Assembly (NCBI GenBank): GCA_035527755.1
Contig: DATKZX010000004.1
Coordinates: 21,014-85,013, forward strand
Origin: Methanomassiliicoccales archaeon
Lineage (GTDB): Archaea > Thermoplasmatota > Thermoplasmata > Methanomassiliicoccales > UBA472
Reading direction: 5' to 3'
Length of the DNA: 64,000 bases
Shown: positions 1,208-24,168 of the stretch, piece by piece
Position numbering within the stretch: the stretch's first letter is position 1
Layout of the letters: every line of letters begins with the position of its first letter
The notes under the pieces: model-generated
Database searches by the model: none
What the model was told of the DNA's origin: nothing
What the model saw: only the letters and a program-made list of their open reading frames with translations
Made by a program: the position numbers and the translations under genes

Positions 1208-1840
1208 TCACTCGCTAAGCTTGCGCGACCTCACGCTCTCCCCATAGTAAGGGTTCTGATACTCATCCCAATAGACCAGGAACTTACGCCGTTGGACTTC
1301 CCCATTGCGCAAACAGAACGCCTCCATCTCTTTGCGGACCGGGTCCACGACCAAGGCGGTGTGATAGGGACGATCGAACATGCCCTTCTGAGTGGCTATG
1401 TCAGTGGACGAGAGGAAACACCCGTGACCAGGGTGGGAATGGTACCAGCCCACCAGCACGTAGCGGAAGCGAGTGGATTCAAGAGAGGTGAACAGCGATT
1501 CAAAACCTTCGGGATCGAATCTAACGCTGACAGGAGTGGCTTCAAGATCGGTCGTAGCGACATCCCTCACCACCGTGTATTCACGACCTTGATGAGTGAA
1601 CACCTCCCCCAGCAGCAGACCCATGACCTCCAGTCCGTCCTTGGTGCGGCTGAGGGCGTGGTTGCGCACCTTCTCTTCGGCCATCTTGAACAAGTACATC
1701 TCCGTTCCGTCATTTTCGGAGTATAGGCGACGAGCATCCTTGGACAGCCATTTATGCGGTAATGTACGCTCGGGAGAAGGAGGGTCCCTCTCTTCCACCT
1801 CCATGTCCTGGCCCCCGAGTATTACTGGAGGGCGCCTCAA
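1208..1840 (-). CDS. JAMM/MPN+ metalloprotease, Rpn11/CSN5-like (putative Ubl-processing and deconjugating enzyme)
   Basis: It carries the catalytic Glu context LEVMGLLLGE and the full JAMM motif GWYHSHPGHGCFLSSTD (HxHx7Sx2D). The TTG start forms a TTGA overlap with the E2 stop and is preceded by AAGGTGGTG. An alternative ATG lies at 1804. Confidence 0.85.
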   Translation of the reverse strand: MRRPPVILGGQDMEVEERDPPSPERTLPHKWLSKDARRLYSENDGTEMYLFKMAEEKVRNHALSRTKDGLEVMGLLLGEVFTHQGREYTVVRDVATTDLEATPVSVRFDPEGFESLFTSLESTRFRYVLVGWYHSHPGHGCFLSSTDIATQKGMFDRPYHTALVVDPVRKEMEAFCLRNGEVQRRKFLVYWDEYQNPYYGESVRSRKLSE

Positions 1841-2343
1841 GATCGCACCACCTTAGGGGGAGGGGCGGTAATGATGGGGATGGGTTTCTTTTTTCCAGAA
1901 TTATAATACTGGGCGGCCGAAGTGCAACTATCTGTTCCGAACGGACTTCCCCCATTGGGCGCGATCAACATGGATTCCAGACCTTTGATGAACGTTGAAA
2001 GGGTGGAATTAAAGGACCATTCGGAGAGCAGCTTGATGCAGACATGGCCCCCGTCCTCCGGCATCATGATATTGGGATGAAAGATGGGCGTCCTCCAGAT
2101 CACCAAAGGCTTCTCAAAGGGATATTCCCGACCAATGATCAGTTGCAAGCGGTGAGAATATCGATAGGTTACCTTGTCGTTCTCCATTATCGGACCGGGC
2201 GTGTGCTCCAGACTGATGTCAACTTTAAGTGGGAAGGATGTTAGATGCTCCTCTCCAAGATCGAACTCGGCCGGAAGGTAGTTACTGCAAACCTCGAGCT
2301 CGTTCCTCAAACGAATGTAGAGTATCTCCAAGGGCAAGGTCAT
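1837..2343 (-). CDS. Ubiquitin-conjugating enzyme (E2, UBC fold)-like protein
   Basis: YPFEKPLVIWRTPIFHPNIMMPEDGGHVCIKLLSEWS matches the UBC signature: YPF.P, the HPN triad, the catalytic Cys, and a downstream Trp. The start forms an ATGA overlap with the Ubl stop, and its own stop overlaps the JAMM start. Confidence 0.8.
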   Translation of the reverse strand: MTLPLEILYIRLRNELEVCSNYLPAEFDLGEEHLTSFPLKVDISLEHTPGPIMENDKVTYRYSHRLQLIIGREYPFEKPLVIWRTPIFHPNIMMPEDGGHVCIKLLSEWSFNSTLSTFIKGLESMLIAPNGGSPFGTDSCTSAAQYYNSGKKKPIPIITAPPPKVVRS

Positions 2344-2585
2344 CTGCTTCCGCCTTCGGGGTCGGGTATCAGTTCCAGCTCTTCACTGGACGTAAGGTCC
2401 AGGTCCTGGACCTTCTGTTGCCCGCGTAAAAGACGGCGCCCCCTGCGTATCACATATGCACCGGGATCCTTTTCCCAATAGGCCGAGACACCTTCGATTA
2501 TCTCCTCCACGCTGTTCTCGCCCTCTAGTTCCATGTCCACCGTGGCCCCGGTCTCCGCGTTCCTGATTCTTACTCTTACCACCAT
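2340..2585 (-). CDS. Ubiquitin-like small protein (beta-grasp size) with a C-terminal GG followed by a two-residue propeptide (SR)
   Basis: The protein is 81 aa. Its alternating strand/helix pattern (VVRVRIRN / ATVDMELE / SVEEIIEGVSAYW / YVIRRGRRLL / ELELIP) is compatible with a beta-grasp fold. It ends PDPEGG-SR. It sits between the E1-like and E2-like genes. Confidence 0.7.
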   Translation of the reverse strand: MVVRVRIRNAETGATVDMELEGENSVEEIIEGVSAYWEKDPGAYVIRRGRRLLRGQQKVQDLDLTSSEELELIPDPEGGSR

Positions 2586-2655
2586 GATATCGAACTGGTC
2601 AATCTTGAGGTAGGGCGTATAATCCTTTCCATTAGAATCAGCATAATGATAATGC

Positions 2656-3462
2656 CTATACCAGATGATTGGGGCACCCAGGGTCCTTTTCCAACAGGAG
2701 CACGTCGGAAGTGCCTTTCAATCCATCGTAATACATGACATGTTGAACGACATCCATGCCTGAGAGCGATTTCACCGCCTCCCGGACCTGTATGGCGGCC
2801 ACTACGCTAGTCGTTGTTATCTCCGCGGCCATCTTGGGCTGGTAGAAGACGGTGTCCTGACCAGTACAACTGAACCTGTGCTCCATCACCCTGAAGTGGC
2901 TGCGATTCATGGTGCATTGCAAACATGGTGTCACCGGAGGTATGATCACCTGGACCTTACCCCGGAAACCATCGGTCCCGCCGTCGATATACGGCACTTT
3001 GGAGTAATAGGAATTAGCATTGAGATGCAGGCGAGCGGCAATGTTATCCAAGCACCCCAGGACCATATCGTAACTGGTCAGTTCCTTCGGACCCAGCGAT
3101 TGCACCTTTCCTTGTAGAGGTTTGATCTCCACGTCGGGATTGAGCATGCGAGCCCTCTCGGCCACCAGATCGGATTTGCCTTTTCCGGATAACTGGTCCC
3201 CTTCTCTGAAAAGTACACATCGGTTGAGATTAGAACGGACCACCTGATCCATGTCCAGAACGTCCAGGTGCTTGAACCCGAACAAGACCAGGTCCTTCAC
3301 CACCTCATTGCCCAACGCTCCGGCGCCGACCACCAATATCTTGGACCTCTGAACCGCATCCAGGTCCACCCAGCCTATGCGCCTTGTCCTATCCAACCGG
3401 TCAAGGTCCGGTTCGCCAGGGCGGATCACGTCTTCCATGCCTTGGAAATATTTGCCCAGCAT
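2656..3462 (-). CDS. E1-like adenylating enzyme (ThiF/MoeB/UBA family), minimal 268-aa form
   Basis: It has the nucleotide-binding motif ILVVGAGALGNEVVKDL, followed by LDMDQVVRSNLNRCVLF. It has Cys pairs CLQC and CPNH, and a candidate catalytic Cys in RFSCTG. It is the first gene of the operon. Confidence 0.85.
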   Translation of the reverse strand: MLGKYFQGMEDVIRPGEPDLDRLDRTRRIGWVDLDAVQRSKILVVGAGALGNEVVKDLVLFGFKHLDVLDMDQVVRSNLNRCVLFREGDQLSGKGKSDLVAERARMLNPDVEIKPLQGKVQSLGPKELTSYDMVLGCLDNIAARLHLNANSYYSKVPYIDGGTDGFRGKVQVIIPPVTPCLQCTMNRSHFRVMEHRFSCTGQDTVFYQPKMAAEITTTSVVAAIQVREAVKSLSGMDVVQHVMYYDGLKGTSDVLLLEKDPGCPNHLV

Positions 3463-3562
3463 ATAATAATTGAACAGTACTAGTACATAATATGATAATG
3501 AAATAAATCAGTCTGGACTGCTAACTTCATATATCCTGCGGTCAGTTATAATATGGATAATC
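3463..3562. promoter_or_regulatory. Divergent AT-rich promoter region between the E1-like gene and ppk1
   Basis: A 100-nt AT-rich spacer contains several TATA-like tracts (ATATAATAAT, ATAATATGATAATGAAATAAAT, TTATAATATGGATAAT) and the perfect 10-nt palindrome GTACTAGTAC at 3477-3486. Confidence 0.4.
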
Positions 3563-5698
3563 ATGCCCTCTGGGAAGAGCAAAGAAGGTAAAAAGGGAAC
3601 GGCCAAGCGAAGCACTGGAGTCGAATCCCTGAAACCAGATTCCACAGGGTCGTTCCTGAACAGGGAGATCAGCTGGGTGAAGTTCCATCGTCGCATCCTG
3701 GAGGAGGCACTGGACGAGGAGCACCCTCTCCTGGAAAGGGTCAAGTTCTTGGCCATCTGCGGCAGCAATCTGGATGAATTCTTCATGGTCCGTGTCTCCG
3801 GGCTGAAACGACAGTTGAAAAAGGGGGCGTTGGAAGCACCCCCGGACGGACTGACACCTTTGGAGCAGATGGAGATCATAAACCATGACCTGCTACCGTT
3901 GCTGGAGCTGCACGGCAAGTGCTGGTATGACGACATTCTACCTAAGCTCAAGGCCCAAGGCATCAGCATTCGTCGCATAAAGGACCTTGACCCGCAACAG
4001 CGGGAGGGTCTGCGAGACTTCTTCGAAAGAATGGTGTTCCCCGCGATGACGCCTTTGGCCTTGGACTTCAATCAGCCATTTCCTTTCATTTCCAATCTCA
4101 GTATCAATCTGGCAGTGGTCGTTCACCATCCCCAGAGAGGCGAACGTTATGCCAGGGTGAAGGTCCCGGTGGACCTTTTCCCCCGCTTCGTTTCTTTACC
4201 TGGAACCAACCCGGGCCGCTCACAGGACTTCGTATTGCTCGAAGACCTTGTGACTGACAATCTGGACCTGCTCTTTCCGGGCATGAAGATCAAGGAAGTT
4301 CATACTTTCCGCATCACTCGGGACGCGGACATCGAGATAACCATGGACGAGGCTGAAGACCTGCTGACCGCCATCGAGGAAAGCGTGGAGACCAGGAGGA
4401 TCGGTTCACCGGCCAGGCTAGAGGTGGACAAGGACATGCCCGAGAGGATGGTCGATCTCTTCAGTAATAAGTTGGGGCTTCACCCGTTGGCCGTATTTCG
4501 CTCGTTCGCCCCCCTGGCCCTCGGCGGTTTCTGGGACCTCCTTTCCATCAATCGCCCGGACTTGAAGGACCCGCCCTTCCTACCTTATGTTCACCCGGAC
4601 CTCGCGCCGGAAAAGGATATCATGACAGCCGTGGACCGACGTGACCGGCTGTTCTACCATCCCTACGATAGCTTCGTGCCCTTGGTCACCTTCCTGAAGC
4701 AAGCAGCTCACGACCCCCATGTGCTTGCCATTAAGATAACCCTCTATCGTATTGACAAGCACTCCCCCATCATCGACGCCCTGATGGAGGCCAGAGAGAA
4801 TGGCAAGGCGGTGGCCGCCGTGGTGGAATTGAAGGCTCGCTTCGATGAAGAGAACAACATCGTCTGGGCCCGGGCCTTGGAACGAGCAGGTGTCCATGTG
4901 GTGTATGGTCTGCTGGACCTCAAGGTGCATGCCAAGGTGTTGCTGGTGGTCAAGAAGAAGGGCAATGACATCGTACGATACACGCACATGGGCTCGGGTA
5001 ACTACAACGCACAGACGGCCAGGGTATACGGGGACATCGGATATCTGACCAGCGATCCGGACATTGGGGCGGACGCTGCCGATCTGTTCAACTCGTTGAC
5101 GGGGTATGCGCAAAAGGAGAGCTACCGCAAACTGCTGGTTGCCCCGGCGACCTTGAAGAGGGAACTGATATTCAGAATAGACCGGGAGGCCCAGAGACAT
5201 AAAGATCATGGCGACGGCTACATAGCCTTCAAGTTGAACGGGTTGCTGGACAAGGAGGTCATATCGGCCTTGTACCGAGCGTCCAATGCCGGGGTCACGA
5301 TCGATCTGAACGTGCGCGGGCTCTGTGCGCTGAGACCCGGTATCAAAGGCATTAGCGAGAACATCAAGGTCAGTAGCATCGTCGGCCGGTTCCTGGAGCA
5401 TGCCCGCATATTATATTTCCGAAATGGGGGGGAGGAAGAGGTGTTCCTGGGCAGCTCTGACCTTATGCCGCGCAACCTCCACCGTCGAGTGGAGGTGCTA
5501 TTCCCGGTCCTGGACGAACAGTACCGACGAATGCTGGTGGACAAGATCTTACCCATTCATCTTCGGGACAACGTGAAATCGCGCGACCTGCTACCGGACG
5601 GAAGCTATGTCAAAAAAAGACCTAAGAAGGGAGAGGAAAGGGTCGATTCTCAAGAATGGCTGATCAAGAATCGTGGTATCTGGCACAAGGAGGAGTGA
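3563..5698 (+). CDS. ppk1: Polyphosphate kinase 1
   Basis: The 711-aa protein has the N-terminal FLNREISWVKFHRRILEEA..HPLLERVKFLAI..NLDEFFMVRV. It has two PLD-like C-terminal domains (KVHAKVLLV.., GSSDLMPRNL.RRVEV) typical of PPK1. Confidence 0.95.
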   Translation: MPSGKSKEGKKGTAKRSTGVESLKPDSTGSFLNREISWVKFHRRILEEALDEEHPLLERVKFLAICGSNLDEFFMVRVSGLKRQLKKGALEAPPDGLTPLEQMEIINHDLLPLLELHGKCWYDDILPKLKAQGISIRRIKDLDPQQREGLRDFFERMVFPAMTPLALDFNQPFPFISNLSINLAVVVHHPQRGERYARVKVPVDLFPRFVSLPGTNPGRSQDFVLLEDLVTDNLDLLFPGMKIKEVHTFRITRDADIEITMDEAEDLLTAIEESVETRRIGSPARLEVDKDMPERMVDLFSNKLGLHPLAVFRSFAPLALGGFWDLLSINRPDLKDPPFLPYVHPDLAPEKDIMTAVDRRDRLFYHPYDSFVPLVTFLKQAAHDPHVLAIKITLYRIDKHSPIIDALMEARENGKAVAAVVELKARFDEENNIVWARALERAGVHVVYGLLDLKVHAKVLLVVKKKGNDIVRYTHMGSGNYNAQTARVYGDIGYLTSDPDIGADAADLFNSLTGYAQKESYRKLLVAPATLKRELIFRIDREAQRHKDHGDGYIAFKLNGLLDKEVISALYRASNAGVTIDLNVRGLCALRPGIKGISENIKVSSIVGRFLEHARILYFRNGGEEEVFLGSSDLMPRNLHRRVEVLFPVLDEQYRRMLVDKILPIHLRDNVKSRDLLPDGSYVKKRPKKGEERVDSQEWLIKNRGIWHKEE

Positions 5699-5700
5699 GA

Positions 5701-7848
5701 ATGAGGCAGGAGGAACTGTGCCATTTCGGCCAAGAGGTGACGAAAGAGCGATTGACCGCCCTACTGGCGGAGGTTGACGGTGTTCGCAAAGGTGAGGATA
5801 TCGAATGCGTACATCGCATGCGCGTGGCCAGCCGACGTCTGCGCTCGGCATTGCGCCTGTTCCAGGAATGCTTCAAGGAAAGGAAGGCCAAACGTTGGCG
5901 ACAAGCGGTCAAAGAGATCACCTCCGCCCTAGGCGAAGCGAGGGACCTGGACGTCCAGATAGATTTTCTTGAGGAACTCGGTAAGAATTGGGAAGGAGCG
6001 GAGAGAGACGGACTGCGGGAGATCGTCCGTACCTTCAGGGACAGGAGGGCGACGTTGCAGCCTGACATCGTAGCGCTCATGGACCGTATGACCGCTGAGA
6101 ACCCCCTCAGGGAAATGGAACGGGAGCTGATGGGTGTGGAGAAGTGGCAGGGAGACCTTTCCGCGATCAGCTCCCACGCCTACGCTCATTCGGCCATTGC
6201 CGTGGAGGAACTTATGGCCCATTCGTATTCGGTGCCGGTCTACGAGGACTGGGAGGGCCATCATGCCCTTCGAATCGCTGGGAAGCGCCTGCGCTATGCC
6301 CTGGAGGCGTTCCGAGGGGCCTACTCCGACGGTCTGACCGAAGAGATACGCACCCTCAAGGGATTGCAGGACGTCGTAGGGGACCTGCATGACTGCGACA
6401 TATGGTTACAGCGCCTACCGGAAATGCGGGAAAGGATGCCGGAAGCGGAAAAGGCATTGGACCGTCTGCAAAGTGACCGCGAACTGCGTCGAAGGAAGCT
6501 GCATGGGAAGCTGATGGAGAGCTGGAACGTCCTGTTGCAGGAAAGGTTCTTCTACCGCGTATTGGACAAGCTAAAAGAACATGGGACGGAGGAGGTCTGC
6601 CCTATGAACGTGGCGCTGATCTCGGACGTGCACGGGAACGAGTTGGCATTGAGGGCGGTCATGTCTCACGCGCGCGAAAGGGGAGTGTCGGCGATACTCC
6701 ACGCGGGTGACGCCGTCGGTGCTCCGAGGCCCAACCAGGTCATCGATCTGCTCAGGGGTGCGGACGTGCTCAGCGTCGCTGGGAACATAGACAGGACCGT
6801 TCTGGAGGCCCACCATAGGCGCGGCAGATGCTTCGACGCCTCCCTCGAATTCCTGGTCAATGATCTGAATGATAAGGGCTGGGAATGGTTATCTTCCCTG
6901 CCCACGGAGGTACGGTTAGACATTTGCGGCCGGACGGTTCTCATGACCCACGGTTCCCCTGGCAATGATCGGGAGAAACTGCTCCCCGCCACACCCGAAT
7001 CGCGATTGAAGTGTGTAGCCCAGGATGCCAAGGCGGACGTGGTGATCACTGGACATTCCCATATCCCTATGCACCGGGAGGTGTCGCACACCCTATTTGT
7101 CAATCCGGGGAGCGTAGGGCGGCCGAGGGGTGGGACTCGGGCCTGCTACGCCATACTGACATTTCCGATGATGGAAATACAGCACTATCAGGTCAAGTAC
7201 GACTCCCAAAAGATGGCCGATGAGGTGCTGGCACAGGGATTCCAGGACCAGGCCAAGGATATTGGCGAGGGGAGGAAGGAGGATAGGGTGGAGGCCGTAG
7301 GTCAGTGGGCCATGTTGCTCCAACCAGACCAGGGGCATATAGAACAGGTGCGGACCCTGGCACTTCAGCTCTTTGACCAAACGAAAGGATTACACCGATC
7401 GAAAGAAGGTGACCGCGAGCTGCTGGAGATGGCCGCCCTGGCCCATGATGTAGGATTATATCAGGGCGGGGAGGGACACCAGCGGAGAGCCTTGGACCTG
7501 ATCATGGAGGCCGAACTACCCCTGGACCGGAGAGATCAGATGATGGTGGCTTGCATCTCCCGCTACCATGGTTGCCGCTCACCGCGGGAGAACGACCGCG
7601 TCTTCAGAGACCTTAAGCAGAGGGACCGTAGACGTGTGCGAAAGCTCGCTGCCTTGCTGGCCATCGCTGATGCCCTGGACCGGGGACACGATTCCCGGGT
7701 GACCGGCGTGACCGCCGTGGTGTCGAAAAAGGAGGTCCGCCTTCAACTGGCAGGTAGTGGACCGTTCATACTGGAACGGGAATGGGTCGGGTATAAACAA
7801 TGCCAGTTCGAAAGTGTGTTCAGTAGGAGGGTCTGCCTTGAACAATGA
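5701..7848 (+). CDS. Three-domain fusion: CHAD domain, calcineurin-like metallophosphoesterase, and a Ppx/GppA C-terminal (HD-like) domain
   Basis: The start was moved to ATG 5701, which has AGGAGG 8 nt upstream and lies 2 nt after the ppk1 stop. The CHAD wording is VHRMRVASRRLRSALRLF and HALRIAGKRLRYALE. The MPP motifs are DVHGN, GDAVG, GNID, THGS and GHSH. The C-terminal 170 aa parallel the C-terminus of the next gene (AALAHDVGL.., SRYHG, LLAIADALDRGH). No in-frame stop separates the domains. Confidence 0.8.
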   Translation: MRQEELCHFGQEVTKERLTALLAEVDGVRKGEDIECVHRMRVASRRLRSALRLFQECFKERKAKRWRQAVKEITSALGEARDLDVQIDFLEELGKNWEGAERDGLREIVRTFRDRRATLQPDIVALMDRMTAENPLREMERELMGVEKWQGDLSAISSHAYAHSAIAVEELMAHSYSVPVYEDWEGHHALRIAGKRLRYALEAFRGAYSDGLTEEIRTLKGLQDVVGDLHDCDIWLQRLPEMRERMPEAEKALDRLQSDRELRRRKLHGKLMESWNVLLQERFFYRVLDKLKEHGTEEVCPMNVALISDVHGNELALRAVMSHARERGVSAILHAGDAVGAPRPNQVIDLLRGADVLSVAGNIDRTVLEAHHRRGRCFDASLEFLVNDLNDKGWEWLSSLPTEVRLDICGRTVLMTHGSPGNDREKLLPATPESRLKCVAQDAKADVVITGHSHIPMHREVSHTLFVNPGSVGRPRGGTRACYAILTFPMMEIQHYQVKYDSQKMADEVLAQGFQDQAKDIGEGRKEDRVEAVGQWAMLLQPDQGHIEQVRTLALQLFDQTKGLHRSKEGDRELLEMAALAHDVGLYQGGEGHQRRALDLIMEAELPLDRRDQMMVACISRYHGCRSPRENDRVFRDLKQRDRRRVRKLAALLAIADALDRGHDSRVTGVTAVVSKKEVRLQLAGSGPFILEREWVGYKQCQFESVFSRRVCLEQ

Positions 7849-9400
7849 GGCGGACAAAGGGAAGGTCACATCCTTCCTCGACGTGGGCACCAATTCCGTG
7901 AGGCTGCTGGTAGTGCGCATCAACGCCAATCGTTCCTACACGGTCATCAGCGAACAGAAGGAGATAGTAAGGCTTGGGGACACCGAGTTCGGGGAAGGTG
8001 TGTTGTCAGAGGAGGCCATCGATAGGACGATCAGGGTGGTAAAGAACTTCTGTGATCTCTCCCGGACATATGGCGCCACGGAGTTCGTGGCCATGGCAAC
8101 CTCCGCCACTCGTGAGGCCATCAACCGGATGGACCTTGTTGACCGGTTAAAGGATGTCACTGGACTGGAACTGGAGATCATCTCCGGAATGGAAGAGGCA
8201 CGTCTGATATACCTAGGAGTATCCAGCGGACATCACATTGGACGGAAGACCTCCTTGTTCATTGACATCGGAGGGGGAAGCACGGAACTGGTGCTGGGTG
8301 ACCAGCTTAACTACTCGTACCTGGAGAGCTTGAAGGTCGGGGCCATCCGCCTCACCACCATGTTCGTGAAGAAGGTCGAGGGACCGGTATCGGAAGACAT
8401 ACTGAACAAAATGCGCAAGTACGTGAAGAGCGCGCTGGTCCGTGGGAAGAGAGAGATCGTGCAGAGCAAGGTGAGTCTGGCCTTCGGCAGTTCCGGTACC
8501 ATCGTCAATCTCTCGGAGATCTTAGCAAAACATGACAGTTCCGCCCATCTAGGCATTATCCGTCATTCGCAGTTGAAGAAAATTCTTCCCTACCTGTCCA
8601 ACATGGACCTGAATACCAGGCGAAAGGTGCCAGGGATCAATCCTGAAAGGGCGGACATCATCGTGGCCGGTGCGGTGATACTGGAGATGATCATGGAGGA
8701 ACTGAAGCTGAGCGAGATCGCCGTAAGCTCACGCAGCCTTCGTGATGGGATGCTCCTGGACTATCTCGGAGGTTTGCAGGAGTTCCCTGGATATCGCGAG
8801 CTATCGGTGAGGGAAAGAAGTGCGATACAGCTCGGACGGACGTGCTCTGTGGACGAGGAGCATGCCCGAAGAGTGATGACCATTGCCCTAGAGCTGTTCG
8901 ACAGCGCCGCCAAGAAAGGGCTTCATGGTTTCGGTAAGGAGGAACGGGAGCTACTGCATCATGCCGCGTTCCTGCACGATGTGGGGGATTTCATCTCCTT
9001 CAACGATCATCATCTTCATTCGCATTACATCATCTGCCACGCCGAGCTCTTGGGATTTTCGAGCCGCGAGGTGCTTATCATGGCCAATGTGGCCAAGTAT
9101 CATAGGAAGCGCACCCCCAAGGTCCGGTCGGTGGACCTGAAGGACCTGGATGACATCGATAAGCGAGTGGTGCTGCACCTTTCCACGTTTCTGCGGATGG
9201 CCGAGAGCCTGGACAGGTCTCACTCCAACCTGGTGCAGAGCGTGCACTTCAGCAAGGTAATGAAAAATTCGGTGAGGCTGATCGTGACCGCCAGCGGGGA
9301 CCCGCAGCTTGAGATGTGGCGTTTGGAGGAGGACCGCAAGGCTTTCGTGAAAGCTTTTGGAAAAGAATTACAAGTGATACTGAACCGCATCGAAAGTTAA
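7838..9400 (+). CDS. ppx: Exopolyphosphatase / guanosine pentaphosphate phosphohydrolase (Ppx/GppA)
   Basis: It has the ASKHA N-terminus FLDVGTNSVRLLVV..IDIGGGSTELV and a C-terminal HD-type domain (AAFLHDVGDFISFNDHHLHS, KYHRK, LRMAESLDRSH). The start is tentatively TTG 7838, with AGGAGG at 7825-7830. The ORF track allows 7757. Confidence 0.85.
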   Translation: MNNEADKGKVTSFLDVGTNSVRLLVVRINANRSYTVISEQKEIVRLGDTEFGEGVLSEEAIDRTIRVVKNFCDLSRTYGATEFVAMATSATREAINRMDLVDRLKDVTGLELEIISGMEEARLIYLGVSSGHHIGRKTSLFIDIGGGSTELVLGDQLNYSYLESLKVGAIRLTTMFVKKVEGPVSEDILNKMRKYVKSALVRGKREIVQSKVSLAFGSSGTIVNLSEILAKHDSSAHLGIIRHSQLKKILPYLSNMDLNTRRKVPGINPERADIIVAGAVILEMIMEELKLSEIAVSSRSLRDGMLLDYLGGLQEFPGYRELSVRERSAIQLGRTCSVDEEHARRVMTIALELFDSAAKKGLHGFGKEERELLHHAAFLHDVGDFISFNDHHLHSHYIICHAELLGFSSREVLIMANVAKYHRKRTPKVRSVDLKDLDDIDKRVVLHLSTFLRMAESLDRSHSNLVQSVHFSKVMKNSVRLIVTASGDPQLEMWRLEEDRKAFVKAFGKELQVILNRIES

Positions 9401-11274: not shown

Positions 11275-12501
11275 ATGAAAGCCCTCATCCTAGCCGCCGG
11301 CGATGGCACCCGACTCAGACCCCTTACCAGCAACAAACCCAAGCCTCTGCTCACTGTGGCGGGGAAACCTTACCTGGCACACCTTGTACAAGCTCTGAAG
11401 GACGCGGGTATCAAGGACCAGACCATCCTGGTCGGCTGGAAGAGCAATAAGGTGAGGGAGTTTTTTGGCGACGGACAGCATATGGGGGTGGACCTAACAT
11501 ACCTGGAACAGAAGGAAAGGTTAGGCACCGCCAACGCTATCGGCGTGGCCGAAGGGATCATCCAGGAAGATTTTGTATGCGTCAACGGGGATGTCGTCAT
11601 GGCCCCGGAATCGATAGCAGAGCTGGTAACCGCGTTCCAAAAGGACCGGCGGCCTATCATGGGGACGGTGGAGGTCCCCGACCCCTCCCGCTTCGGAGTG
11701 GTCGAGCAAAAAGATGGGAAACTGGTACGTGTCTGGGAGAAGCCGTCGAACCCTCCGTCCAACCTTATCAACGGCGGTATCTTCGGTCTCACTCCCGAGG
11801 TCTTCGATCTGATCCATAGGACAGAACGGTCCTCCCGGGGCGAGTACGAGTTCACAGACACCTTGAACATGATGTCCGCTGAGATGGACGTGAGGGTCCA
11901 TCGCATCGTGGGGGAATGGATAGACGTAGGTTATCCTTGGGAATTACTACGAGCCAATGAATACCTCATGGGGCGTTTGAAACGGAATGTCCGTGGCACG
12001 GTGGAGGAAGGCGCTGTGATCAAAGGCAACGTCGTCGTCGAGGAAGGCGCTGTGATCCGCAGCGGGAGCTACATCGAAGGACCGGTCTACATCTCCAAGG
12101 GATGCGATGTCGGACCGAACTGTTACATCCGCCCTTCCACCTGCCTCGGTGAGGGGGTCAAGGTAGGGAACGCGGTTGAGGTGAAGAACTCCATCATCAT
12201 GCAAAGGACCAACGTACCGCACCACAATTACATAGGGGACAGCGTGATCGGTGAACGGTGCAATTTCGGCTCAGGGACCAAGGTGGCCAACCTGCGTTTT
12301 GACGACCGCGCTGTCAGGGTATCGACCAGGGGGCAGCTCATAAACTCCGGAAGAAGGAAGTTAGGCGCCATCATCGGTGATGATGTGAAGACCGGAATAA
12401 ACGCCATGATAGAGCCCGGGGCCGTCATCTGGGAAGGTACCATCATCGGGATGGGGGCGTTGGCCCGGGGGAACATAGGGCCGAACAGCAGGGTCCTTTA
12501 A
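11275..12501 (+). CDS. Bifunctional sugar-1-phosphate nucleotidylyltransferase / acetyltransferase (archaeal GlmU-like)
   Basis: The start was set at ATG 11275, with GGAAGGAG upstream. The N-terminus is MKALILAAGDGTRLRPLTSNKPKPLL. The C-terminal half consists of hexapeptide (left-handed beta-helix) repeats. Confidence 0.75.
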   Translation: MKALILAAGDGTRLRPLTSNKPKPLLTVAGKPYLAHLVQALKDAGIKDQTILVGWKSNKVREFFGDGQHMGVDLTYLEQKERLGTANAIGVAEGIIQEDFVCVNGDVVMAPESIAELVTAFQKDRRPIMGTVEVPDPSRFGVVEQKDGKLVRVWEKPSNPPSNLINGGIFGLTPEVFDLIHRTERSSRGEYEFTDTLNMMSAEMDVRVHRIVGEWIDVGYPWELLRANEYLMGRLKRNVRGTVEEGAVIKGNVVVEEGAVIRSGSYIEGPVYISKGCDVGPNCYIRPSTCLGEGVKVGNAVEVKNSIIMQRTNVPHHNYIGDSVIGERCNFGSGTKVANLRFDDRAVRVSTRGQLINSGRRKLGAIIGDDVKTGINAMIEPGAVIWEGTIIGMGALARGNIGPNSRVL

Positions 12502-12878
12502 AGGTCCACGACTGGAAGCTCTATACTACTACCTTGATGATCGTAGGCCTGCCAACTATTTTCATCGTACGGCAAGCATGTGATGATGTGGACCATACCA
12601 TAGCGACGGAAAAGTTCCAGGTCCTGCCTGGAAGGTCGGTTGCTGTAACCGGGGTGAGAATGGATGGTGCCGACCACCGTATGATCGATGGGCAGCATGT
12701 GCAGCATCACCAGCGCGGAGTCCTTCCCCTGAAGTGTTCCAGGCACCAGCAACAGTTCCGAGATAACGCCTTCCTCGACCCTCAGCATAGCCATGAACTC
12801 GTTCGGCAGGCTGTCCCTTGACGCTTGGTTCACCATTTCCATGAGGGAGCGGTCGATACTTTTGACCCTCTTCAGCAC
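12498..12878 (-). CDS. Stand-alone minimal JAMM/MPN+ metalloprotease
   Basis: The protein is 126 aa. It has a Glu context (NEFMAMLRVEE) and the motif GTIHSHPGYSNRPSRQD (HxHx7Sx2D). Its size and wording match the single-domain archaeal JAMM proteins. Confidence 0.75.
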   Translation of the reverse strand: MLKRVKSIDRSLMEMVNQASRDSLPNEFMAMLRVEEGVISELLLVPGTLQGKDSALVMLHMLPIDHTVVGTIHSHPGYSNRPSRQDLELFRRYGMVHIITCLPYDENSWQAYDHQGSSIELPVVDL

Positions 12879-13681
12879 AACGCCCCCATGAGCTTTTCAC
12901 GTGTGCGGGCGTAAAAACCTTTGCCGAAATTGACGAAACGAGCCTTATCGGGCGCTGCCTGGAACTCCACGGTCTCATTCCCGGCCATCATCATCTCCTG
13001 TTGCCCATCGACCACGACCACGCACTCCTTCGGCCGGACTATCTGCACTGATATACGACTACTGGCCGGTACCACCAATGGGCGAGCGGCGAACTTGAAC
13101 GGGGCCATAGGGGCGATGACAAGCGCCTCCACCCGTGGGTCGATGAGGGGAGCCCCCAGGCTCATGGCGTAACAGGTGGAGCCGGTCGGGGTCGCCACCA
13201 CGATCCCGTCCGCTCGCACGTTGACAGCCATCTCCCCGTCCACGAACACCTGGAAGTGGCGGATCTTGGCCACATGGGCCGTGTGCAGCACCGCCTCGTT
13301 CATTGCGTCGAGCATGCGTCTGCCCCCGACCACGGTCTGCAGCTTTGTCCTCCACTCCAATTCGTAATTGTCGTTCAGGAGGTTGTCGATCCCCTCTTCC
13401 ATCTCTTCCTCCGAAACCACCGTCAGAAATCCTAGATCACCAGCGTTGATACCGAACATCGGTGCCTTATTGTGCTGCAGTGCACGCAGGATGGTGCCGT
13501 CACCGCCCACGGTGACCATTATGTCAACGTCCATATCATCGATGCGGTGCCCTTTGACCTTGAATCGCTGGGCCATCTCATTTTCCAGCAGCACCTCGTG
13601 TCCTTCAAGGAGATCGATCGCTTTCCTTGCAATGCGCGGGGCATCGGGAATGTCCATGTTCACGCTCATACCGAACTTCAT
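12872..13681 (-). CDS. nadK: NAD kinase (ATP/polyphosphate-dependent type)
   Basis: It has the GGDGTILRA motif and TPTGSTCYAMSLGAP. The start was set at ATG 13681, which forms an ATGA overlap with the upstream stop and has GAGGTGGT upstream. Confidence 0.9.
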   Translation of the reverse strand: MKFGMSVNMDIPDAPRIARKAIDLLEGHEVLLENEMAQRFKVKGHRIDDMDVDIMVTVGGDGTILRALQHNKAPMFGINAGDLGFLTVVSEEEMEEGIDNLLNDNYELEWRTKLQTVVGGRRMLDAMNEAVLHTAHVAKIRHFQVFVDGEMAVNVRADGIVVATPTGSTCYAMSLGAPLIDPRVEALVIAPMAPFKFAARPLVVPASSRISVQIVRPKECVVVVDGQQEMMMAGNETVEFQAAPDKARFVNFGKGFYARTREKLMGALC

Positions 13682-14481
13682 AGTAACCACCTCAGAGCCT
13701 CGGGGTCGCCAACTGCCAGCGTGTTCGCTCTGGACTTGAGGTCCAACGGCATATCCAGCACGGACCCGTTCATATCGTAGAGCTCCCCACCGGCCTCCCT
13801 AAGGATCAATGCACTGGCGGCTATGTCCACCACTCGCAAGGACCTCGCATAGATCTCGGAATTGAGATAGAAGCCGTCAGCCAGGCCGGCAGCCACCAGG
13901 CACATCTCCAAAGAGGAGCACCCCATCGAACGGGTCCGCCGTGCCTTATGGACCACAGCGTTGGTGGCCTTGGAAGAAAATTTTCCTAGATAGACCATGA
14001 GCACCGATCCGTCCTGTTGGAATGGGCGAGCGTGGATGGTACGCCCGTTCCAAGTGGCCCCTTTCCCCTTCTCCGCGTAGAAAGTATCCTCGGTGACCAG
14101 GTTGCGTACGATGCCGTGGGTCACATCGTTCATGCTCTTTGTCCCCACGGCCAAGGAAACGCTGTAGAACGGTATGCCCATCAAGGCGTTGTATGTGCCA
14201 TCGACAGGGTCCATGATCAATGTTCGATCAAAACCACGATCGATGAAGCCAGCCTCCTCGCTAAGCACATTGAGGGGGACATTCCTCTCGTCCATCATCC
14301 TAAGAAGAGCTTCTTCGGCCACCTGGTCGATACGGCAGGTGGGGGTGCCATCCGCCCCCATGCTCACCTCTTCTGCCCTTTCTTCGAACTCGCAGTGGCC
14401 ATCGATCTCACCGGCCACCTTCTCGGCCAGCCAATACAATGTCTCCTTCATCGCTTTGGATATTGACGGAGGATTATACAT
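13678..14481 (-). CDS. Inositol monophosphatase / fructose-1,6-bisphosphatase family (possible NADP phosphatase partner)
   Basis: It has the metal-binding motifs VLSEE, MDPVDGTYNA and a WD-like SLEMCLVAAGLADGF. It is translationally coupled to nadK. In some archaea the two activities are fused in one protein. Confidence 0.85.
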   Translation of the reverse strand: MYNPPSISKAMKETLYWLAEKVAGEIDGHCEFEERAEEVSMGADGTPTCRIDQVAEEALLRMMDERNVPLNVLSEEAGFIDRGFDRTLIMDPVDGTYNALMGIPFYSVSLAVGTKSMNDVTHGIVRNLVTEDTFYAEKGKGATWNGRTIHARPFQQDGSVLMVYLGKFSSKATNAVVHKARRTRSMGCSSLEMCLVAAGLADGFYLNSEIYARSLRVVDIAASALILREAGGELYDMNGSVLDMPLDLKSRANTLAVGDPEALRWLL

Positions 14482-24069: not shown

Positions 24070-24168
24070 GGGCTCATGGTCTAGCGGTTATGACGTCTCC
24101 CTGACATCCCTTCCCCGGAAGGGTCAGAGCGGAGGAGGTCTCCGGTTCAAATCCGGATGGGCCCACCA
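24070..24168 (+). tRNA. tRNA-Val (anticodon GAC) with a 23-nt intron after position 37 and an encoded CCA
   Basis: I folded it by hand. The acceptor stem is GGGCTCA/TGGGCCC. The D arm is GTCT-AGCGGTTA-TGAC. The anticodon stem is TCTCC/GGAGG with loop CTGACA|intron|C. The T arm is TCCGG-TTCAAAT-CCGGA, and the discriminator is A. The intron (24107-24129) holds the hairpin CCCTTCC-CC-GGAAGGG, and its 3' part GTCAG pairs with the anticodon-loop CTGAC, giving bulge-helix-bulge geometry. The mature length is 76 nt. Confidence 0.85.

Follow-up and report, generated by a model that had tools for sequence, protein, structure and literature searches.

A ubiquitin-type E1-Ubl-E2-JAMM gene cassette without a linked RING gene in the archaeal order Methanomassiliicoccales

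A stretch of 64,000 nucleotides from a Methanomassiliicoccales archaeon (assembly GCA_035527755.1, contig DATKZX010000004.1, positions 21,014 to 85,013; hereafter the window) was analysed. On its minus strand, at 1208-3462, it carries four co-directional genes for an E1 activating enzyme, a ubiquitin-like modifier (Ubl), an E2 conjugating enzyme and a metalloprotease of the JAMM family, with 268, 81, 168 and 210 aa according to the list of open reading frames (ORFs). We consider it likely that this cassette encodes a working system for the conjugation of the Ubl to proteins and that the system is part of the core genome of the order. Three of the components (E1, E2 and JAMM) score above the curated Pfam cut-offs, and the residues needed for catalysis in E1, E2, Ubl and JAMM show at least 95% conservation among 56-81 orthologs. 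A first-pass annotation, prepared from the sequence alone, had described the four genes with their positions, lengths and motifs, all of which are present in the sequence; its identification of the parts as eukaryote-like E1, Ubl, E2 and Rpn11-like JAMM was correct, as judged by Pfam, PDB matches and structure models.

Components of the cassette

The E1 gene (2656-3462, minus strand) encodes a single-domain adenylating enzyme of ThiF/MoeB size, which matches Pfam ThiF (PF00899) over residues 28-264 of 268 with 171.8 bits (cut-off 28.1; 1.7e-50). Its ATP site is marked by the motifs GAGALGNE, DMD, SNLNRC and CLDN..AR; a putative zinc site combines C180-x2-C183 with C263-x2-H266, and the candidate catalytic Cys199 (codon 2866-2868) lies within a conserved R-x-S-C-T-G motif. 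Across 56 orthologs, GAGALGNE, DMD, SNL-RC, GCLDN--AR-H-N, the zinc site and R-x-S-C199-T-G are at least 95% conserved. The best matches in the PDB sequence search were yeast Uba1 (7e-27), UBA3 and SAE2, with MoeB/ThiF lower (approx. 3e-19) and UBA5 detected at 7e-12 over residues 21-264. The segment GFRGKVQVIIPPVTPCLQCTMN aligns to UBA3 and the next aligned block starts from residue 213, so that the stretch from the zinc CxxC to the point where the Rossmann fold resumes has only 29 residues, compared to approx. 86 in UBA3. Because of this short loop, we conclude that the enzyme has neither a separate Cys domain nor a ubiquitin-fold domain (UFD); its architecture is MoeB-like. Cys199 occupies the position which we take to be the start of the Cys domain, with the catalytic Cys, in UBA3 and SAE2, and that of the crossover-loop Cys in ThiF, MoeB and UbaA. 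The protein had been labelled a ThiF/MoeB/UBA-type E1. A ThiF adenylating enzyme it is, but not a canonical UBA-type one, given the single ThiF domain and a crossover loop instead of the Cys domain.

The Ubl gene (2340-2585, minus strand) encodes a precursor of a ubiquitin-fold modifier with the C-terminus ELIPDPEGG and the tail SR (GG codons 2349-2354). No sequence match to the Ubl was found in Pfam, NCBIfam or the PDB sequence search, and its assignment comes from an AlphaFold model, built from 28 homologs, and from Foldseek. The model (pLDDT, the predicted local distance difference test, of 93.4) has the ubiquitin strand order bb-a-bb-3(10)-b. It superimposes on ubiquitin, SUMO and Hub1 with template modelling (TM) scores of 0.80-0.87, a root mean square deviation of 1.4-2.4 Å and E-values of approx. 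1e-7 at 12-21% identity, and the top 50 Foldseek hits, these three included, are ubiquitin-type modifiers. Thus, the beta-grasp fold, whose recovery had been set beforehand as a refutation test for the 81-aa protein, was found by structure search. ELIPDPxGG is invariant in the 28 homologs; 11 of them stop directly at GG, and in the others 1-9 variable residues follow. Among 74 orthologs, GG is at least 95% conserved.

The E2 gene (1837-2343, minus strand) encodes a conjugating enzyme of the UBC fold. It matches Pfam UQ_con (PF00179) with 50.5 bits (cut-off 27), and its PDB sequence matches are the eukaryotic UBE2C, UBE2N and Ubc12. HPN is found at residues 89-91 and the catalytic Cys at residue 102 (codon 2038-2040); between them, the active-site loop (HPNIMMPEDGGHVC) has a conserved insertion of three residues (MMPEDGG). 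None of 18 homologs deviates at H89, P90, N91, C102, W109, P129 or N130, and across 81 sequences HPN and Cys102 are conserved to at least 95%. The AlphaFold model (pLDDT 77.7) comprises alpha1, four strands, the active-site loop and two C-terminal helices, and its top 50 Foldseek hits are all eukaryotic E2s (TM approx. 0.53). The first-pass proposal had been made to depend on a UBC fold for the 168-aa protein and on conservation in orthologs of both the candidate catalytic Cys of the E2 and the GG of the Ubl; UQ_con and Foldseek recover the former, and the alignments show the latter two.

The JAMM gene (1208-1840, minus strand, TTG start) encodes a 210-aa MPN+ metalloprotease with an N-terminal extension of approx. 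45 aa. It matches Pfam JAB (PF01398) with 54.7 bits (cut-off 22.5; 1.1e-14), and its active site (E71, H134-S-H136, S144 and D147) fits the pattern ExnHxHx7Sx2D; the EvMG and GWYHSH..S.tD motifs are conserved in 76 orthologs. PDB sequence matches rank yeast and human Rpn11 first (1.4e-15), followed by CSN5 (1e-13), Caldiarchaeum Rpn11 (6fjv; 1.5e-12) and AMSH, in line with the closeness to Rpn11/CSN5 that had been read from the motif. This assignment is also consistent with the results of Fort et al. (2015) on the ortholog of Methanomassiliicoccus luminyensis. Many of the Ubl homologs (11/28) end at GG, yet the JAMM gene is always kept, and the conserved role of the enzyme is therefore probably deconjugation. 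The NCBIfam desampylase model yielded 32.9 bits (cut-off 130); this and the further NCBIfam equivalogs tried (UbaA, MoeB, ThiF) all scored far below their cut-offs.

Next to these assignments, a short motif shared by E2 and JAMM was noticed. The E2 C-terminus carries P-[KR]-[VI]-[VI] (window 1837-1880; here P-K-V-V) in 59 of 80 orthologs and in distant E2s, and a similar motif opens the protein encoded next, namely RRPPVIL or MPKII in JAMM (window 1805-1840). It occurs further as MKPKIIEV...PPENIVFSYDP in a separate 51-aa ORF of locus L083 (6432-6587) and in a 213-aa ORF of locus L081 (1010-1651). The motif may represent a shared docking strand.

Distribution and inheritance

A Methanomassiliicoccales metagenome-assembled genome (MAG) encodes a protein with 100% identity to the window E2, and for the E2 of the cultured M. 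luminyensis the identity is 56%. Altogether, 172 E2 homologs were detected and, among the 120 matches listed, all named ones are labelled Methanomassiliicoccales or Euryarchaeota, which agrees with the euryarchaeal-type host assumed in the first pass. Relatives were scanned using one genome per GTDB species; 91 genomes contained an E2 relative and 80 loci were fetched, in which the cassette genes were traced by tblastn of the window proteins. All 80 loci carry Methanomassiliicoccales or Thermoplasmata labels, and they span Methanomassiliicoccaceae and Methanomethylophilaceae, including Methanoplasma and Methanarcanum. E1, Ubl, E2 and JAMM are found in the same order and on the same strand in 74 of them; five loci are partial, being cut at contig ends, and one (L046) has E2 only. 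L046 belongs to an ‘uncultured archaeon’ contig and contains tandem E2 paralogs (7405-7917 and 7992-8510; 170 and 172 aa, HPN and Cys being present in each) next to glutamine synthetase; the 14.7-kb locus yielded no E1, Ubl or JAMM.

Downstream, a SIS-domain gene and an AP_endonuc_2 TIM-barrel gene, both convergent with the cassette, are conserved in most loci, and the identities of the four cassette proteins track those of the SIS and TIM-barrel proteins across loci (Spearman 0.75-0.88). The GC content of the cassette equals that of its surroundings, with no anomaly. Other neighbours in the window are metabolic genes (polyphosphate kinase PPK1, CHAD/Ppx, phosphoglucomutase, sugar nucleotidyltransferase, NAD kinase and inositol monophosphatase), as expected from the first-pass description of a cassette among housekeeping genes. 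Order-wide synteny, co-divergence with the neighbours and local GC content speak against lateral acquisition. Based on these results, we conclude that the cassette is a vertically inherited core system of the order, neither recently acquired nor of the defence type. The first-pass annotation had offered two options, an E3-less lineage-specific system or a laterally acquired module, and had suggested a survey of neighbourhoods in related genomes. This survey, with the same-order cassette in 74/80 loci, favours the lineage-specific option over the lateral module, and the term ‘E3-less’ holds for linked genes only.

Gene junctions and intergenic regions

The 4-nt overlaps reported for the Ubl/E2 and E2/JAMM junctions are both visible in the sequence. 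The former reads AGC AGA TGA and includes the E2 start ATG; the latter reads TCT TGA and includes the JAMM start TTG. The TTG start of JAMM is credible because the N-terminal residues P5 and I7, encoded from this TTG, are conserved in orthologs. The overlaps suggest translational coupling of the Ubl, E2 and JAMM genes.

E1 and Ubl are separated by a 70-nt spacer (2586-2655, minus strand) which, in the clade of the window, contains a conserved inverted repeat ATCA-N6-TGAT (2637-2650) and a TFB-recognition element (BRE)/TATA-like sequence, GGAAAGGATTATAC (2617-2630), approx. 35 nt before the ATG of Ubl. This 14-mer recurs exactly and at the same position in 13 related loci, with varying spacer sequence around it. 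The spacer is a probable internal, regulated promoter for Ubl, E2 and JAMM. The gap between E1 and Ubl measures 65-131 nt in Methanomassiliicoccaceae, compared to 11-21 nt in Methanomethylophilaceae. Upstream of E1, a divergent, AT-rich intergenic region of 100 nt (3463-3562) leads to the polyphosphate kinase gene and presumably contains the E1 promoter. The word ATTATCAT appears both upstream of E1 (3492-3499, minus strand) and in the E1-Ubl spacer (2646-2653). It has four occurrences in the window, two of them in these spacers, which is not significant as 6 of 100 shuffles reach four; the two promoters may share a regulator.

In some genomes, E1 is not linked to the other three genes. It lies approx. 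4 kb from Ubl-E2-JAMM in locus L019 (3715-7750), where genes for a hemerythrin-like protein and a PAS/response-regulator histidine kinase lie on the opposite strand, and approx. 2.5 kb away in locus L026; in locus L085 (78-1799), thioredoxin and thioredoxin reductase genes precede Ubl-E2-JAMM at the place expected for E1. Since E1 is separated in these three loci, Ubl-E2-JAMM can be expressed apart from it. The ‘fixed stoichiometry’ which the first pass had deduced from the overlaps consequently fails for E1, with its unlinked positions and the promoter-like element that follows it, and applies at most to the Ubl, E2 and JAMM genes.

Search for a linked RING-type E3

RING domains were searched with a strict regular expression (C3HC4/C3H2C3), a broad pattern including C4HC3 and a hidden Markov model (HMM) built from RING-like domains beside divergent relatives. 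The strict expression gave zero matches everywhere but misses the C4HC3 type, for which reason the broader pattern and the HMM were used. None of the three methods revealed a RING-like ORF across the 64 kb of the window or the 79 orthologous loci (±8 kb, up to 16.5 kb); whole genomes were not searched. The earlier observation that no RING ORF lies within or beside the cassette therefore extends to the related loci, and a fair statement is ‘no linked E3’, not ‘no E3’.

C4HC3 RING-like genes do adjoin divergent relatives of the cassette. In locus L065, from a very GC-rich genome with cassette proteins 41-45% identical to those of the window, a 228-aa RING-like (C4HC3) protein with a hydrophobic segment is encoded at 6236-6922 (plus strand) and ends at the E1 start; its C-terminal motif is CxxC-x12-CxC-x4-H-x2-C-x6-CxxC. 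Loci L083/L084, from an AT-rich archaeal contig, encode a 239-aa C4HC3 RING-like protein with a winged helix-turn-helix-like N-terminus (4242-4961, minus strand) between a 249-aa E1 and JAMM, adjoined by an 86-aa Ubl ending in ...MPDSEGGS and a 144-aa E2. Locus L082 encodes a 1458-aa protein (2442-6818, minus strand) whose C-terminus passes the cut-off of Prok-RING_1 (31.1 bits; cut-off 29.1). Pfam support for a RING is weak and below the cut-offs in L065 (E=0.06) and L083 (E=1e-3). A possible explanation for the lack of a linked RING gene in the order is that an ancestral RING gene was lost or relocated.

Proposed mechanism and alternative explanations

If the cassette works as its parts suggest, the Rpn11-like JAMM would trim the 81-aa Ubl after Gly79 where a tail is present, and the small E1, probably as a homodimer, would adenylate the exposed Gly79. 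The Ubl would then be taken over as a thioester by E1 Cys199 in the short crossover loop and passed to Cys102 of the UBC-fold E2. The E2 would attach it to lysine residues of cellular proteins, on its own or together with a ligase whose gene lies elsewhere, and JAMM could reverse the modification. A housekeeping role in protein turnover or regulation appears most likely, rather than antiviral defence. Conjugation free of E3 has precedent, since E1 and E2 of Caldiarchaeum auto-ubiquitylate without an E3, with Rpn11 of the same system cleaving both precursor and conjugates (PMC5654768, PMC6043591), and since bacterial BilD and BilB conjugate without an E3 in E. coli (PMC10557695). A bolder version, which we regard as tentative and rather doubtful, is a minimal core system for ubiquitylation whose E2 would choose its substrates with no E3 at all and be fed by the smallest known E2-charging E1, a bare domain of MoeB size with its catalytic Cys in a loop of 29 residues. 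Such a minimal system could be a stage between E2-less sampylation and E1/E2/RING cascades, or the streamlined descendant of a RING-containing ancestor like that of L065.

Several points weigh against a complete conjugation system of this kind. What the data show directly are the genes present, their folds, the conservation of the catalytic residues, the synteny across the order and the co-divergence with the neighbours; all chemical steps, the substrates and the physiological role are what we infer from sequences and models, and the housekeeping role in particular is deduced only from distribution and context. The lack of a separate Cys domain and UFD in E1 leaves the recruitment of the E2 unexplained, and the E2 model is only moderately confident. 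An unlinked E3 is possible, as the RING search covered only 64 kb here and ±8 kb in the relatives, and the RING-like genes adjoining the divergent relatives may mean that the ancestral system needed an E3. A ligase, of the RING type or another, could have its gene at a distant place in the genome, which would make this a full E1/E2/E3 system of the Caldiarchaeum/Asgard kind with an unlinked E3; on balance, we hold this to be unlikely. It would accord with the C4HC3 RING-like proteins next to the cassettes of L065, L083/L084 and L082 and with the finding that the Caldiarchaeum system needed its E3 for substrate modification (PMC5654768); on the other hand, it would imply that the linkage was lost consistently across the whole order, none of the three search methods found a RING-like ORF near the cassette in the window or the 79 related loci, and the RING calls in L065 and L083 remain below the Pfam cut-offs.

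Two further explanations concern the purpose of the genes. An antiviral module of the type of bacterial Bil/CBASS-Cap2, obtained by lateral transfer and tagging viral proteins, would have the same component set, as BilABCD also consists of Ubl, E2, JAB and E1 and also lacks an E3, and the Rossmann part of the E1 (residues 31-149) weakly matches PADLOC models of Cap2-type E1-E2 proteins (best 8.8e-15). However, the gene order differs (E1-Ubl-E2-JAB, compared to Ubl-E2-DUB-E1 in Bil, DUB being the deubiquitinase), the E1 is a single domain of 268 aa rather than IAD+AAD+CYS, and the E2 is a canonical HPN-type UBC protein. Further, the cassette occurs order-wide at one conserved chromosomal position, co-diverges with its neighbours and is surrounded by metabolic, not by defence or mobile genes. 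No E2 relative was found on viral contigs, PHROGs gave no match for Ubl, E2 and JAMM, i.e., for three of the four proteins, and PADLOC gave none for Ubl or E2. We thus deem the antiviral explanation very improbable. An assignment to a PADLOC defence family, based on no more than these weak Cap2 matches of the E1 and weak JAB matches, was rejected. Equally little probability is given to a Ubl and E1 acting mainly as a sulfur-carrier pair of the ThiS/MoaD/SAMP/Urm1 type in cofactor or tRNA thiolation, with conjugation secondary or absent. Such a pair would fit the MoeB/ThiF size and architecture of the E1 with its zinc site and crossover-loop Cys, and archaeal SAMP/UbaA and Urm1 are dual-function systems (PMC4571572). 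Against it stand a conserved HPN/Cys E2 and an Rpn11-like isopeptidase, both probably coupled in translation to the Ubl. Moreover, ubiquitin-type modifiers fill the top 50 Foldseek hits of the Ubl model, the adenylation domain of the E1 matches Uba1, UBA3 and SAE2 better than MoeB/ThiF, and neither a rhodanese domain nor a sulfur-transfer neighbour is present.

Wider family and locus context

A profile search for the wider family against 1.84 billion representatives yielded 30 clusters below 1e-30 and 94 below 1e-10, with several fused forms beyond the order. In the Ubl-E2 fusions P0250, P0310 and P0319, GG is kept at the junction (e.g., ...LELIPDPTGG-ANLPEDLL...) together with the catalytic Cys of the E2, and a JAMM gene follows the fusion in L081 (P0250; 259-1008) and L086 (P0319; 5338-6156). 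These sequences may represent self-processing or cis-charging variants. A family of 220-230 aa (P0271, P0277, P0280, P0282, P0286, P0292 and P0298) combines an N-terminal ubiquitin-like domain without GG with a UEV-like E2, in which HPN is kept and the catalytic Cys is absent; in L082, such a UEV-like fusion (7001-7687) is followed by a 98-aa CDC48_N-domain protein (7733-8029). E2-JAMM fusions are P0243 (682 aa), in which the JAMM site is degenerate (HSAP) and a zinc ribbon lies at the C-terminus, and P0260 (534 aa), with an intact JAMM site, no E2 Cys and a C-terminal repeat region. A 389-aa reading of this kind in L068 (8001-9170), a Methanomassiliicoccaceae MAG, may be due to an assembly frameshift. 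The 249-aa Ubl ‘fusions’ in L043, L051, L052 and L063 were discarded as artefacts of ORF extension across an in-frame stop (GG*RM...).

Within the window, a polyphosphate cluster (3563-9400, plus strand) is divergent from E1 and encodes PPK1 (711 aa), a CHAD-metallophosphoesterase-HD fusion (730 aa) and Ppx/GppA (547 aa). Linkage of this cluster to the cassette is confined to the closest clade (L002-L015). The separate minimal JAMM noted in the first pass at 12498-12878 is real (minus strand, 126 aa, Prok-JAB match 2.1e-11) and probably represents the usual archaeal JAMM1-type enzyme. The end of its gene overlaps the start of the NAD kinase gene (12872-13690), and the inositol monophosphatase gene adjoins. 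Rfam detected a 96-nt tRNA at 24070-24165 (plus strand, 52.3 bits), which is absent from the ARAGORN output and probably contains an intron.

Previous descriptions and significance

Parts of the cassette have been recorded before. The E2 is already annotated as ‘ubiquitin-conjugating enzyme E2’ in public databases. Only two Rpn11 orthologs from archaea were given by Fort et al. (2015), among them M. luminyensis WP_019177758, whose neighbouring genes were not noted; Fuchs et al. (2018) reported that prokaryotic JAMMs nearer to Rpn11 sit in Ub/E1/E2 operons, with no taxa named and the order absent from the supplement. The Euryarchaeota entry of Grau-Bove et al. (2015) consists of one marine group II genome only. 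In the open-access literature, no description or characterisation of the operon in this lineage was found. The novelty claimed in the first-pass annotation was overstated in view of the existing E2 annotation and of the two papers on Rpn11-type JAMMs.

As the order has cultured members, the substrates and the role of an archaeal Ubl E1-E2 pathway would become directly testable. To our knowledge, work on complete E2-containing archaeal ubiquitin-type systems has relied on recombinant proteins of the uncultured Caldiarchaeum alone. The Asgard archaea, which provide further examples, are very hard to grow. Should the E3-free minimal system be true, a culturable archaeal host, such as M. luminyensis, would be at hand for an E2-dependent pathway and its link to the proteasome and Cdc48 in vivo. 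Further, eukaryote-like E2 and Rpn11-type parts are core genes of a Thermoplasmatota lineage, beyond TACK and Asgard, which bears on the spread of the ‘dispersed eukaryome’, while the very small E1 and the absent linked E3 bear on the question of what such a cascade can do without. With its RING-linked, Ubl-E2-fused and E2-JAMM-fused forms, the wider family appears to represent an unexplored diversity of such systems in uncultured archaea.

Comparison with known systems

Bacterial BilABCD (Type I/II) shares the set of Ubl, E2, JAB DUB and E1 and the absence of an E3. The Bil DUB matures the Ubl, which has a conserved Gly and up to 9 variable residues, and also deconjugates (PMC10557695). In contrast to the cassette, the Bil genes are arranged Ubl-E2-DUB-E1, BilD has tandem IAD+AAD and a mobile CYS domain instead of a single-domain architecture (PMC10557695), and BilB has a Cys/His site of the CEHH type, not the canonical HPN of UBC proteins. 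Bil systems are also sparsely distributed and tied to defence regulators, whereas the cassette is order-wide, syntenic and located among metabolic genes.

With the SAMP/UbaA/HvJAMM1 system of Haloferax and other Euryarchaeota, the cassette has in common a euryarchaeal-type host, a MoeB-sized E1 with zinc site and crossover-loop Cys, and a JAMM that removes the modifier or, in the cassette, probably does so. Sampylation is independent of an E2, whereas a conserved E2 gene overlaps the Ubl gene by 4 nt here. The cassette JAMM is Rpn11-like and not JAMM1-like, as shown by its low desampylase score, and the Prok-JAB gene at 12498-12878 exists separately.

UBA5, the E1 of the UFM1 pathway (UBA5-UFC1-UFM1), consists of a single adenylation domain without a UFD or large Cys domain and has its catalytic Cys in the crossover region. 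The cassette E1 resembles it in being a single-domain enzyme lacking both and in having its candidate catalytic Cys in the crossover loop; its adenylation domain is nearer in sequence to Uba1, UBA3 and SAE2. Unlike in the UFM1 pathway, the E2 is of the canonical HPN type and not UFC1-like, and there is no UFL1-type E3 context.

In component type, the cassette is closest to the systems of Caldiarchaeum, with its operon of Ub, E1, E2, small RING E3 and Rpn11, and of Asgard archaea, two features of which are missing: the linked RING gene and the Cys domain of the E1. The Caldiarchaeum E1 (CsE1) has a catalytic-Cys domain of approx. 60 residues (PMC11354881), while the 268-aa E1 here is a bare ThiF domain. 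The modifiers also differ: CsUb shares 31% identity with human ubiquitin, whereas for the Ubl of the cassette no similarity to ubiquitin could be detected at the sequence level. The similarities are nevertheless extensive: like its Caldiarchaeum and Asgard counterparts, the cassette is archaeal and encoded as an operon, its ubiquitin-fold modifier is made as a precursor with GG plus tail, its UBC-fold E2 has HPN and Cys, and its E1, E2 and JAMM score best against eukaryotic proteins. As in Caldiarchaeum, whose CsRpn11 (6fjv) was among the matches given above, the Rpn11-like JAMM stands alone. Unlike Caldiarchaeum, the host belongs to a methanogen order of the Thermoplasmatota with cultured members.

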